Of a DNA stretch of 64,000 nucleotides, positions 27,210 to 31,748 are shown piece by piece; the first letter of the stretch is position 1, and each line of letters begins with the position of its first letter. Both the position numbers and the translations under genes were made by a program. Origin of the DNA: a virus. The DNA lies in IMG/VR virus record IMGVR_UViG_3300047359_000671, positions 27,310 to 91,309 of that record. One strand, written 5' to 3'. The notes beneath the pieces are model-generated. The model was not told the DNA's origin, searched no databases, and saw only the letters and a program-made list of their open reading frames with translations.

Positions 27210-27416
27210 ATGAAGATATACTTAATCATTACTTTCGTTCTCATTAGTGGTTCAGAACAAATTATGCCACAGTTCCCACCAAAAGAGGTTACAACTATGG
27301 AGATTTGTGAACGTAAAAAAGCGGCAGCGGAAGAATACTTTACATATCAATTAGAGAATAAACCAGTTAAGTCTATAGCAGGATTTAACGTACAGTGCCA
27401 GGAAATAGAATCATAA
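27210..27416 (+). CDS. Hypothetical secreted/membrane-anchored protein
   Basis: ATG 27210 lies 5 nt after late box CATAAATA (27197-27204); hydrophobic N-terminus and two Cys. Confidence 0.6.
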   Translation: MKIYLIITFVLISGSEQIMPQFPPKEVTTMEICERKKAAAEEYFTYQLENKPVKSIAGFNVQCQEIES

Positions 27417-27848
27417 TTTTTTACTAATGCTTTCTAAGTATTCAGTTAATATTTTAGAACTTCCTACTCTAACATTAATAATCCCGTTGTAATATTCATC
27501 GGTTTCTAACACTCGTCGGTCAAACTGTTCTTTTGCTTCGACATAACTCAAAGCACCACGACTCGGACAGTAGTGTAGAATTTCACGCATAAACTTGTTG
27601 GGACCTAATTTTTTTACATCAGCAATTAAATGTTCAGAAGAACCCCAATAGTCTCGCCAATCACTCTCTTTAAACCCACGTCTTTTGTTTTTTCTTCCTT
27701 TAAGAGGTGGTTTCGTTGTTTTAAATCTTGCTAACTTCTTACCCACATACTTTCGGTTGTTTTCAAGATTCGTAATTAAATACACAAATCCCTCAACATC
27801 TTCGGGTAATTCATTTACCACTTCTCCGTTATATTTCCAATCGCTCAT
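27411..27848 (-). CDS. GIY-YIG-type (Seg-like) small endonuclease
   Basis: GFVYLITN...RKYVGKK, YWGSS, REIL, E, YYNG motifs. Confidence 0.8.
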   Translation of the reverse strand: MSDWKYNGEVVNELPEDVEGFVYLITNLENNRKYVGKKLARFKTTKPPLKGRKNKRRGFKESDWRDYWGSSEHLIADVKKLGPNKFMREILHYCPSRGALSYVEAKEQFDRRVLETDEYYNGIINVRVGSSKILTEYLESISKKL

Positions 27849-27869
27849 AGTATTCCATTTGTTTTATTC

Positions 27870-28450
27870 TAAAAGGTCTAAAGACCTAATTCCTTCATAA
27901 ATTTCATTCGCTTTCGCTCAATCAATTTATTCGGTATTTCTTTTATATCTATAATATACTTATATATTCTATTATTATGGTATTATAATATTATCTTTTA
28001 TACTTGTTCCGTTTAGAAGCCATAATTGCCCTGTTGCCAGGACAATAAAAAAATGGCGGAAACTTGTTCCTTGCTCATCAGCCTCTGTGTCTAAGTTAGC
28101 CTCCAGCAAAGGCGAGGTCGGTTGGCGATTCCCTCATCACTTAGTATTGCGTCTTTCGACCCAACGGCACACTATTCAACTCACACAGTTCAACTTGAAT
28201 AATGCAACTAGATTGCCTAGTTCGGTTTGTACAAATGTACGGTATTCTCTGGTCATCCTAATATCCTTTAGAGATATGGATGTTTTATATTATAAACAGT
28301 CTTTTGTGGTTTACGAGAAGAATGTAGGAGTTCATCCCTACTAGTCTGAACGTATGTAGAATATACGCCCTCAATCCCGGAACGGCAACCCGCTCAACAG
28401 TCCCACTATATCGATTATATTAGTTTTCATATTAGTCCCCATTGTTGAGC
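27870..28450 (-). ncRNA. Candidate large structured ncRNA
   Basis: More than 10 stems, GNRA tetraloops, G-U pairs consistent only with the minus strand, a long-range closing helix and a possible pseudoknot; no credible ORF. Confidence 0.65.
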
Positions 28451-28500
28451 CATATTAGTTATAAAAAGATGTATTAGTTTTATATTAGTTTTATATTAGT
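28418..28500. repeat. Six direct TATTAGT repeats (iteron-like)
   Basis: Copies at 28418, 28430, 28453, 28472, 28483, 28494; the last three have an 11-bp period. Confidence 0.85.
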
Positions 28501-28504
28501 ATTG

Positions 28505-28726
28505 TTAGATTATAGGCGTCCCAGCCTGTTTGCTCATTTCGAAATTCTCATTGACAATTTCGTTTAGATAGTCTATGTGACCTGCGGGCATTTCGTGTAT
28601 TTCACTAATGCTAACCCCACCTCTCATATACCAACTTAACTTTAACATATTCTTATGTAGTTTGTCAAGTCTTTTTTGATATTTTTCTTGTTTTTCTGCA
28701 ATTTCTTCTGGGCTGGCGTTAACCAA
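28505..28726 (-). CDS. gp51-like baseplate hub/tail assembly chaperone C-terminal part, probably expressed by -1 frameshift from the upstream ORF
   Basis: L.WYMRGG.S..E...M motif; weak TTG start with no RBS; -1 frame relative to 28732-29562. Confidence 0.7.
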   Translation of the reverse strand: MVNASPEEIAEKQEKYQKRLDKLHKNMLKLSWYMRGGVSISEIHEMPAGHIDYLNEIVNENFEMSKQAGTPII

Positions 28727-28744
28727 CCAGCCTAAGAAAAATTT
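28711..28744 (-). other. Programmed -1 ribosomal frameshift signal
   Basis: In-frame slippery heptamer A AAT TTT (28744-28738), 5-nt spacer, hairpin GGCTGG...CCAGCC (28732-28711). Confidence 0.75.
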
Positions 28745-29562
28745 ACAGGATTAATCTCAAGCGTTATTTCGTCTTTATGTCCACAATCAGCACATGTAAA
28801 TTCAAACTTTGATAAATCGTCAGGCTTTTTGCTTAACTCTTTTACTTTACTTTGAATTGTCTTTACAATAGGTGCAGGGATATCATTTAGAAATTGTCTA
28901 ATTTCTTCTTCATCAACCACATCACCTTCTGGTGTTTCTATTCTAGCAATAGACGTTGTAACTAAATCAATATTCTGAATTGCAACTTTTCTAAAGCCGT
29001 CTGAAAAAGTCTTGGCTAAAGTTAGTTCGTCTTCTTCTTCATTTACTGATTTACGAACACTTTCAAGTATTCGTCTTTGTTCAACTTCCATTAATGCTAA
29101 ACGTGTTATGCTTTCAATTTTTGCTGGTTGAACGTGAATTTTTAAATCATCGAATTCAATCGGTTCAACTTCTGAGATATCAGGGAATTTATCTAATAGA
29201 TAGTTGATATCTATATTATAATCTCCCTGCGCTTTACACTCTGAACAGGTGTGAGTATGTGTAATATCTTTTCCGTATGTTGCATATTTGATAGCAAGAA
29301 ACAACGCTTCCACATCAATGTTACACAATTGTCTTGCGTCTTCGATAGATGGAACACAACTTTGAATAAGATTGATTAAAGCCTCACCATTTAGTAATGC
29401 ATCTGGGTTCTCTAATGAAATCTCATCCACTGCCGTCATGGGCAAAATACCGATTTCATCTAATATCGTTTTATCTATTTCCGGGTTAAACTTCCCACCA
29501 GTTGGTATTTGCACATACAACTGTGGTTTACGGAAATATTTTGATAATAAGTTTTTGCTCAT
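28732..29562 (-). CDS. gp26: Baseplate hub assembly protein, T4 gp26-like
   Basis: YFRKP.LYV..P.GG, PMTAVDEI, PDALLNG, LAIKYATYG and two CxxC pairs. Confidence 0.78.
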   Translation of the reverse strand: MSKNLLSKYFRKPQLYVQIPTGGKFNPEIDKTILDEIGILPMTAVDEISLENPDALLNGEALINLIQSCVPSIEDARQLCNIDVEALFLAIKYATYGKDITHTHTCSECKAQGDYNIDINYLLDKFPDISEVEPIEFDDLKIHVQPAKIESITRLALMEVEQRRILESVRKSVNEEEDELTLAKTFSDGFRKVAIQNIDLVTTSIARIETPEGDVVDEEEIRQFLNDIPAPIVKTIQSKVKELSKKPDDLSKFEFTCADCGHKDEITLEINPVNFS

Positions 29563-29667: not shown

Positions 29668-29690
29668 CCTTTTTTTTGAGAGAGAACAAC

Positions 29691-31748
29691 ATGGCAGACA
29701 CACAAGATGTATATATTTCTGGTTATGACCCCAATTTACCAGACTGGGCGCTCGAAGCCACACAAAAACAGATAGCATCAGCACTTACGTTAGCCAATGT
29801 GGGCTCTACAAACATGCTTAAATTTCTTAAAGCAATATCTAATAATGAACAGATTTCGGTATCAGAACTTACCAAAGCAGTCAACGAACTAAAACAAGTA
29901 AAAGGTAAGATTGATGAAGGTACAAAACAAGAACAGAGGTCGTCACAACAAGAGGCAGCCCAAGATAGAAAAACAAATTCGTTCTTTGAGCGTCTAGTTA
30001 ATTTACAAACTAAACAAAATAATTTAGAAAAACAACTACTAGATGAAACTAAGAAGAAACAAGCAGAACGACAGATACGTGGCGGTTTCACAGACGAAGA
30101 CTTACAGACACAAGAGTCTATGGACAAGTTAAAAAACCTAGGTAAGGGATTCAAAGCAGTAGCATCTGCATCAGCAGTAGCATCAGCAGGAATTGAATCT
30201 GCATTTAGGCAAGGTTTTATGGACAGATTTGATATGGCACAAGAAATGCGACAATCTGGATTGTTGGCAGGGCTAGATTCTGCTTCTGCTGGATTATTGA
30301 ATATGTCAGAAACAATTACAGATGCTAACTTTACTTTTGGTGAAGCCGCAGAATTCACAAAAAGATTTTCACAAGCAGTAGGTGTAACTGGGGTGCAGAG
30401 TGCGTTGCAGTTTGCAGACTCTATAGCAACAGGTGATGACGGGATGATGGCGAAACTAGGTATAGAGTTTGGCCAAGTTGCAAATATGACAGGCATGTAT
30501 TTAGAGTCATTAAGAATTGCAGGTCAATTGAACGGTCGTTCTGACCAACAACTGCGTTCTGGTATGGATGACTTTATGAATAATGTAGTTAGCACAGCAA
30601 ACGTATTAAAAGTTTCAGTTGAAGAGGCCGCAGAAATGATGATGAAAACGTTGGATACATCAGATACTGGTTTATTAGCAACTATGAATCAAGACCAAGC
30701 CGCAACGATTGAAAATGCACTAAGGTCTTTCGGTTCGCAAGGTGGACCTTTGATGGAAGCACTTTCTGCCAGATTGACAGCAGGTGACCAAGGAACATTC
30801 TTAAGAACAGAACAGTTTCAAGGATTACAAGGTACTGCATTAGGTCAAGAAATGTTACCATTTATTGAACAGATGGCACGTGTAGTTGAAGAAGGTGGAG
30901 ATTTTCAAGGGTTCTTATCTAACAATATGGGGGATATGGCAGAGCGTGTTAGAGATTTGGCGTCACAAGCGGGTGTACGAGAACAACTTGTGGATGACCC
31001 ACAATTAGCATCATTAGTCGGTGCGCTAATGCAACAAGCACAAAATATCGAAGATGCGGCAAAAGGAATGCCACAGTTAGATGAAGCAGGTAGAACTGGT
31101 CTTGTTAAGACAGAGTTAGATAGACAGGCTATCATTGCATCAGAAGATGTTGTAAACGAAAGTATGGGCGACTTTGTAGGAAATATGCAAATATTGAATA
31201 CGACACAAGCAGAATTAATAGAACAAGCACGTAAATCATTTAAAAATATATCAGGAATAACTGACATTGTTAATAACGTAGGAACTGCCCTAACCGTATT
31301 GACTAGAGTTGCAACTGAATTTGGTCTTTCACTTATAGACCTAGGAATTAATTCTGACCGATATGACGGGTTAGAAGATGCGATGAAATTACAAGATATA
31401 CAGAATAATCTAAATGGAAATGAAACACCTTCTGATAGAACTAATGTACAATCTATAGTAGATGTACAAAATGCGGCAGTTGAGTTGAGTGCTAAAGTAG
31501 ATGCACCACAAACACATGAAGCAGTGTTTAATACATTAGCAGAACAATTGCGCAATTCTAATGTTACGTCTGAAGAACAATTAACACAACTCATTGACCT
31601 ATTAAAACAAAATCAAGCAAATGCAGAAACAAGAATGAATGCTTCGCCAATAGGTTCGGATGAAAGACAAATAGAAATGCAAAATAACAATGAATATAAT
31701 CAATTAATATCATCTATTAATGACCTTCTAACGGAATTGAGACAATAA
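29691..31748 (+). CDS. Probable tail tape measure protein
   Basis: ~685 aa, helical, Ala/Gln/Met-rich; P.WA.E.T N-terminus; divergent from the chaperone pair. Confidence 0.65.
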   Translation: MADTQDVYISGYDPNLPDWALEATQKQIASALTLANVGSTNMLKFLKAISNNEQISVSELTKAVNELKQVKGKIDEGTKQEQRSSQQEAAQDRKTNSFFERLVNLQTKQNNLEKQLLDETKKKQAERQIRGGFTDEDLQTQESMDKLKNLGKGFKAVASASAVASAGIESAFRQGFMDRFDMAQEMRQSGLLAGLDSASAGLLNMSETITDANFTFGEAAEFTKRFSQAVGVTGVQSALQFADSIATGDDGMMAKLGIEFGQVANMTGMYLESLRIAGQLNGRSDQQLRSGMDDFMNNVVSTANVLKVSVEEAAEMMMKTLDTSDTGLLATMNQDQAATIENALRSFGSQGGPLMEALSARLTAGDQGTFLRTEQFQGLQGTALGQEMLPFIEQMARVVEEGGDFQGFLSNNMGDMAERVRDLASQAGVREQLVDDPQLASLVGALMQQAQNIEDAAKGMPQLDEAGRTGLVKTELDRQAIIASEDVVNESMGDFVGNMQILNTTQAELIEQARKSFKNISGITDIVNNVGTALTVLTRVATEFGLSLIDLGINSDRYDGLEDAMKLQDIQNNLNGNETPSDRTNVQSIVDVQNAAVELSAKVDAPQTHEAVFNTLAEQLRNSNVTSEEQLTQLIDLLKQNQANAETRMNASPIGSDERQIEMQNNNEYNQLISSINDLLTELRQ

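Follow-up and report, generated by a model that had tools for sequence, protein, structure and literature searches.

A conserved -1 frameshift signal in a gp26/gp51-type baseplate-hub gene of a putative jumbo phage predicts short and long forms of one tail-assembly protein

A conserved -1 frameshift in the tail assembly chaperone genes of phages, credited to Xu, Hendrix and Duda (2004), has since been called a general feature of long-tailed phages "except T4", and in lambda it gives a short and a long chaperone, gpG and gpGT (Atkins et al., 2016, PMC5009743). For T4, the literature names gp26 and gp51 as chaperones of hub assembly, gp51 being absent from particles (Leiman et al., 2010, PMC3004832). 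Here we describe a locus of the gp26/gp51 type in a stretch of viral DNA of 64,000 nucleotides (hereafter the window), comprising positions 27,310 to 91,309 of the IMG/VR record IMGVR_UViG_3300047359_000671. The source contig (91 kb) has an estimated CheckV completeness of only 24%, and therefore appears to derive from a jumbo phage; it carries one gene matching the family PF12322. Our analysis indicates that this single gene very probably yields two proteins, of 276 and 352 residues, by means of a -1 slip, and that the underlying signal is real, conserved and in all likelihood used.

The zero-frame product of the gene, open reading frame 1 (ORF1; 28732..29562, minus strand), is the 276-residue short form, a member of the gp26/gp51 family (PF12322). 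The 3' end of ORF1 reads CCT GTA AAT TTT TCT TAG and contains the slippery heptamer A_AAT_TTT (28738..28744, minus strand), the proposed -1 slip site, which can be read directly in the X_XXY_YYZ phase. At the slip, Asn-tRNA would occupy the P site and Phe-tRNA the A site. The -1 frame opens 16 nt ahead of the ORF1 stop; its first codon after the slip is TTC at 28738-28736, and it runs on as an extension of 77 codons plus TAA (28505..28738, minus strand). Translation across the junction would produce ...INPVNF-FLGWLVNASPEEIAEK..., giving predicted products of 276 residues for the short form and 352 (275 + 77 residues) for the long form, with the extension as C-terminal part of the latter. The mechanically called ORF2 (28726..28505, minus strand), a -1-frame ORF of 73 residues with a TTG start, lies within this extension. 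Heptamers of the class H_HH.U_UU.Y, to which both A_AAT_TTT and T_TTT_TTC belong, rank with the most efficient -1 motifs that have been assayed in E. coli (PMC4066793). The heptamer is followed in the window by a 5-nt spacer, TCTTA, and then by a GC-rich hairpin. In having a predicted X_XXY_YYZ slip close to the gene's 3' end, and a short product beside a C-terminally extended one, the locus resembles lambda gpG/gpGT and P2 gpE/gpE+E'. The original prediction for this DNA, made from its letters alone, had proposed a programmed -1 frameshift on the basis of the phased heptamer at 28744-28738 ahead of the TAG, the hairpin 5 nt downstream and the open -1 frame leading into the 73-residue TTG ORF, with products of 276 and about 352 residues; each of these features is present as claimed.

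The same arrangement recurs in related phages. We gathered 165 related loci from IMG/VR and isolate genomes and sorted them with hidden Markov models for the N-terminal body and for the extension. In 159 loci, representing 134 distinct junction sequences with identities of 28-98%, the extension forms an ORF of its own. That ORF is in the -1 frame in all 159, and a phased A_AAT_TTT and/or T_TTT_TTC is present in 158, counts that place the signal far beyond chance. Conservation of heptamer and frame among homologous pairs was one check suggested with the original prediction, which would have been contradicted by random frame relationships; what we found is a single relationship throughout. The sole locus lacking a phased heptamer, L149 (3380-4471), has a shortened ORF1 (252 codons) and a gap before the extension ORF, and possibly represents a broken copy or a fault of assembly. 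The three codons read NNT TTT TTC at every T-type site and NNA AAT TTT at every A-type site, the first codon of the latter being GTA, GCA or ATA. In T4 gp26, which ends ...EFFELL, the Phe-Phe is written TTC TTT and a slip site is lacking, and both paralogs of relatives that encode the two forms in separate genes have a single Phe and no T-run. The fixed codon patterns, set beside these controls, therefore point to selection at the nucleotide level. Beyond the slip site the two frames behave differently: the zero-frame stop falls anywhere from 1 to 37 nt past the aligned junction point in the related loci and the zero-frame tail is free to vary (S, G, V, APAS, SSAG, EQSF and others), whereas the -1 peptide is conserved from its first residues, with an invariant Leu and a W-Y-M-R-G-G motif (alignment A2). 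The frameshift-type split is also found in the finished isolates CBB, Atu_ph07, Phosso, BF17, Munch, P-SSM2, HTVC008M and KVP40.

The apical hairpin, GGCTGG(T)-loop-(G)CCAGCC (28711..28732, minus strand), is a probable frameshift stimulator. Its arms, GGCTGG at 28732-28727 and CCAGCC at 28716-28711, enclose a loop of 10 nt, or of 8 nt if T28726 and G28717 pair, and its folding z-score is about -3. All 24 members of the window's clade retain the hairpin, in line with the structure originally predicted. Across these members 87.5% of cells are paired, as against 19-60% with slid partners, two apical pairs show compensatory changes, and in two members the 3' arm has moved by one codon and the stem still forms. 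Many loci of other clades have a strong hairpin 5-6 nt past T_TTT_TTC. An extended hairpin of 20 bp (28696..28748, minus strand) can also be drawn in the window, the P-E-E-I codons downstream being paired with the slippery run in its lower stem. It has a minimum free energy of -24.7 kcal/mol and a z-score of -5.4, and none of 200 shuffled sequences folds as well; within the clade 79% of its cells are paired, compared with 38-57% for slid partners, and its covariation score was matched in 1 of 500 shuffles. The lower stem might be a side effect of two coding motifs that are themselves conserved.

By profile match and predicted fold, ORF1 is a gp26/gp51-family baseplate-hub assembly protein. It matches Pfam PF12322 (T4_baseplate) with 67 bits, where the cut-off is 24.5 (E 2.5e-18), and phrog_150 'baseplate hub' at E 3e-22, and its AlphaFold model, with a predicted local distance difference test (pLDDT) value of 85, resembles BFVD models named 'baseplate hub assembly protein, T4-like' (E 2.5e-23, template modelling score 0.88). 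Cysteines C106, C109 and C257 are invariant and C260 nearly so (alignment A6), and the counterparts of all four are invariant in gp51 homologs and in naturally fused long forms (see below); the two conserved Cys pairs form a putative zinc site. The nearest isolates, at ~30% identity, are the Rak2-like jumbo phages (CBB, GAP32, Asteriusvirus), Atu_ph07 and Phosso. As for the extension, ORF2 alone and 33 extension peptides matched no Pfam or PHROGs family apart from single weak matches, which include phrog_634 'baseplate hub assembly catalyst' (E 0.002). Neither blastn of the region nor tblastn of ORF2 against a phage collection gave a match, and when a better-conserved extension ORF served as the tblastn query, Phosso and Atu_ph07 alone were recovered from that collection; we ascribe this scarcity of relatives in BLAST searches to the shortness and divergence of the extension. 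A profile of the long form searched against PDB sequences likewise found nothing. Deposited extension proteins can be fragments, because they were annotated from arbitrary internal ATGs: the annotated start of Atu_ph07 gp687 (L004, 3430-3552) falls inside the W-Y-M-R-G-G motif, and Salmonella phage Munch CPT_Munch_275 (L169, 1594-1752) is annotated without the conserved N-terminal third.

Comparison with T4 clarifies what the two ORFs represent. T4 gp26 (208 residues, positions 1-206) and gp51 (249 residues, positions 1-201) both match PF12322 and, like ORF1, phrog_150, which gp51 covers to position 280 of 282 and gp26 only to position 235. T4 thus also has a short form and a long form, the latter with a C-terminal tail resembling the -1 extension of the window, and in both phages genes of this type lie in a tail and baseplate neighbourhood. 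Unlike the window, with its one gene and -1 frameshift, T4 has two divergently transcribed paralogs, and the window proteins, at 276 and 352 residues, are longer, the extension having ~20 extra helical residues. A profile of the gp51 C-terminus aligned with the extension profile in hhalign over 37 columns (probability 79%, P 1.5e-5), and when full-length profiles are compared, gp51 and the natural fusions align right up to their termini. A newer Pfam model, PF28602, is listed for homologs of gp51. The extension profile against the single T4 gp51 or gp26 sequence was not significant in hhalign, the gp51 profile being needed. ORF2 therefore shows a moderate resemblance, at the level of profiles, to the C-terminal ~40-50 residues of gp51. 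In T4 it is gene 25 that follows gene 26, and gene 51 is divergent from gene 26, so ORF2 is not the positional equivalent of gene 51. Since gp26 and gp51 are paralogs of PF12322, ORF1 corresponds to gp26, and ORF1 plus ORF2 to gp51. The pairing of a gp26-like with a gp51-like ORF in the original prediction stands insofar as the comparison of loci strongly favours a conserved frameshift between the two and the 'gp51-like' label is sound, the profile match being backed by counterparts in KVP40 and P-SSM2 that are annotated as gp51; it has to be amended in that ORF2 by itself is not gp51.

These counterparts come from beyond the jumbo phages. P-SSM2 (L173), HTVC008M (L174) and KVP40 (L175) each have one PF12322 gene, ending in FFV or FF before the stop, where the heptamer T_TTT_TTC or T_TTT_TTT is in phase and the -1 extension is gp51-like, and these extensions are intermediate toward gp51 in sequence (for example ...YYKINFALMQHHKYSLTELENMMPWEREIYLALL). 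In KVP40 (KVP40.0328/.0327) and P-SSM2 (PSSM2_014/_015) the locus is annotated as a 'gp26' and small 'gp51' pair; the single PF12322 gene ends in FFV with the phased T_TTT_TTC 10 nt before the stop, and is followed by a -1 ORF of 55-58 codons which the annotators labelled as the C-terminal part of gp51. The records treat these as two separate genes and mention no recoding. The two phages differ from the window's clade in using T_TTT_TTC rather than A_AAT_TTT. The presence of the one-gene state in Kyanoviridae and in Straboviridae (KVP40) means that it is not confined to jumbo phages.

Some relatives encode the long form without any frame change. Searching the extension profile against 1.84 billion representative proteins returned 706 relatives, mostly calls of 44-100 residues; among the best 150, about 20 are PF12322 proteins of 319-351 residues that have the extension as their C-terminus, with a continuous junction of the form ...FRxK(L/I)I.... 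One such natural fusion was modelled with a pLDDT of 90.4 and a predicted template modelling score of 0.85, and in the model the extension is a helix-loop-helix. Such fusions indicate that a covalently joined long form is a genuine protein. A separate short paralog directly adjoins the in-frame long form in all six loci that were fetched. PF12322 occurs once in each of the complete genomes of Phosso, Atu_ph07, CBB, P-SSM2, HTVC008M and KVP40, and twice in T4 and in one tandem-type contig. The order of the paralogs is long-short in two of the two-gene relatives (L087 and L088) and short-long in others (L089-L091 and L093), which suggests more than one duplication or rearrangement.

According to the explanation that we favour, most ribosomes would stop at the TAG and release the 276-residue short form, while a fraction would pause on A_AAT_TTT with the GC-rich hairpin at the messenger RNA (mRNA) entrance 5 nt downstream. 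Paused ribosomes would slip back by one base and read 77 more codons, yielding a 352-residue long form that combines the N-terminal body of the short form with a helix-loop-helix tail. Both forms would be needed, relatives without the slip site encoding two adjacent paralogs instead, as T4 has its short-form gene 26 and its long-form gene 51. If T4 genetics and lambda gpG/gpGT are a guide, the pair would probably act as a fixed-ratio assembly chaperone for the central hub/tape-measure part of the tail, with the extension supplying an extra contact.

Several points weigh against this explanation. The trans-frame protein is a predicted one, and we infer both the slipping and its efficiency from sequence. 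The G/GT-like chaperone role, to which we give roughly even chances, and its link to the tape measure are drawn by analogy. Covariation in the apical hairpin is limited, which can be attributed to its arms also coding for Trp and Ala-Ser, and in other clades a downstream hairpin is not always evident (mean z-score -1.2). Moreover, a T-run is present in all loci, and one extra U would produce the identical fusion; the polymerase might thus add one U in the T5-T6 run and so generate a fraction of in-frame mRNA, and A7/U7 runs are reported to be avoided in E. coli genes partly owing to such transcriptional slippage (PMC4066793). Against this, the run is only 5 T long in the window and 6 in most relatives. 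T-runs of 5-6 are short for efficient transcriptional slippage. In addition, A-type sites keep A_AAT_TTT with an invariant A in third position of the codon before it, which is relevant to tRNA re-pairing and not to the polymerase, and the hairpin follows after 5-6 nt, a distance typical of ribosomal frameshifting. We consider transcriptional slippage to be a very unlikely source of the long form.

Other points against a ribosomal slip concern possible start codons. In the window the ORF1 stop is followed after 5 nt by TTG, with AGG upstream, and an ATG lies two to four codons past the slip site in KVP40, Asteriusvirus BF17 and P-SSM2, though nowhere in the window's clade; in KVP40 and BF17 it overlaps the stop as TAATG, and in P-SSM2 it lies 3 nt past the stop, so that coupled re-initiation is possible in these three phages. 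The 73-residue ORF could accordingly be envisaged as a second gene, translated alone by reinitiation or coupling, with the Phe-Phe kept for protein reasons, as the Phe-Phe near the end of T4 gp26 might suggest and as the two-gene annotation of database records would have it. However, ATG, GTG or TTG is absent from the first four extension codons in 122 of the 134 distinct junctions, and none of the other 12 has a motif resembling a Shine-Dalgarno sequence, leaving little sign of the independent starts that a second gene would use. The TTG of the window corresponds to the invariant Leu, whose codon is CTN or TTA in 125 of the 134, and in many junctions the first possible start comes only 14-36 codons into the extension, where initiation would delete conserved residues. 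The uniform -1 frame, the synonymous TTC TTT of T4, the lack of a T-run in two-gene relatives and the occurrence of in-frame fusions weigh against a second gene as well. Separate translation therefore seems very unlikely to us. A sequencing or assembly error, or a recent mutation that split a continuous gp51-like gene, might be suspected in that homopolymers are error-prone and in-frame long forms occur in other phages, but an identical split, frame and phased heptamer in 134 distinct junctions from independent metagenomes and finished isolates, together with a zero-frame stop that varies in position beside a conserved -1 peptide, effectively refutes it and leaves it a negligible chance.

How far the -1 slip at this locus makes it an equivalent of lambda G/GT, as had been proposed, is a separate matter. 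The logic of a short and a long form is shared, but the window gene runs divergently to the putative tape measure gene, unlike the lambda pair, which lies directly upstream on the same strand. No tail-assembly-chaperone family was among the Pfam and PHROGs matches, Foldseek against the PDB returned nothing at E <= 0.001, and with VIA-align the two models drew nothing beyond generic matches of the helix-loop-helix or helical-hairpin kind (Z < 8), no tail assembly chaperone being listed; whole-model fold searches were filled by generic helical hairpins. We conclude that the likeness to G/GT is supported as shared logic, by analogy, and that membership of a tail-assembly-chaperone family is not supported by the matches found. 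A further lead comes from phage P1, since ORF1 has a weak match to the PmgB-like phrog_1854 (E 3e-4). P1 PmgB is a putative tape measure chaperone that is needed for tail formation and was undetected in virions, and pmgB is located just upstream of the tape measure gene (PMC9024508). The match is weak and partial, and no frameshift has been described for pmgB, so that it serves as a lead only.

The divergent neighbour of ORF1 (29676..31748, plus strand; ATG at 29691) is a conserved virion-protein gene encoding 690 residues and a possible tape measure or hub protein. The protein had no Pfam, PHROG or PDB match; its nearest named Atlas clusters are tape measure proteins, with a language-model score of 0.93. 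Its BLASTP match to T4 gp29 (E 0.087) was not significant. Its homologue in CBB is probably CBB_251, a virion protein detected with 29 peptides (PMC5259590). The order portal, ~700-residue protein, divergent gp26-like gene and small ORF is common to the window and CBB, and in Phosso and Atu_ph07 a small ORF likewise follows the gp26-like gene. A complex prediction for the 690-residue protein with ORF1 scored 0.16, which is below the mark and counts neither way. Of the adjacent divergent tape measure gene that was originally predicted, the divergent neighbour is confirmed, and its identity as a tape measure protein is a lead only.

On the other side of the locus, a gene-free stretch of ~650 nt (27850-28505, minus strand) separates the extension ORF from a GIY-YIG (SegE-like) nuclease gene. 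It opens with at least five copies of the motif ACTAATA(T), and no Rfam family was found in the window. The nuclease gene itself (27411-27848, minus strand) encodes a GIY-YIG homing-endonuclease-like protein of 145 residues (PF19835 SegE_GIY-YIG, E 2e-34) and is situated among tail genes.

Taking these comparisons further, we tentatively propose that the gp26/gp51 family is the functional counterpart of lambda G/GT in T4-like and jumbo myoviruses. The one-gene, two-frame state might then be ancestral and the most widespread, the T4 pair a derived duplication that replaced the frameshift, and the extension the means by which a tube or hub subunit is brought onto the tape measure. We regard this as a possibility somewhat short of an even chance. 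In the open-licence literature (PMC and bioRxiv) we found no report of recoding in gp26/gp51-type genes, and the jumbo-phage genome papers that we consulted mention no frameshift.

The signal described here would represent a widely conserved instance of recoding in environmentally abundant phages, both Rak2-like and Atu_ph07-like, and, among the isolates checked, in cyanophages, a pelagiphage and KVP40. Such loci are at present annotated as two genes, the second often with an arbitrary or truncated start, and these gene models can be corrected accordingly. The predicted junction peptide, which for the window reads ...INPVNFFLGWLVNASPEEIAEK and for BF17 ...YDPSHFFR, provides a target for proteomics, and the E. 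coli phages of the Asteriusvirus group, which carry the same signal, offer an experimental system. T4 gp26 and gp51, whose roles have been unclear for decades, become testable as the suggested short and long forms of one factor whose ratio would matter. If true, this would account for T4 as the cited exception to the conserved tail-gene frameshift.

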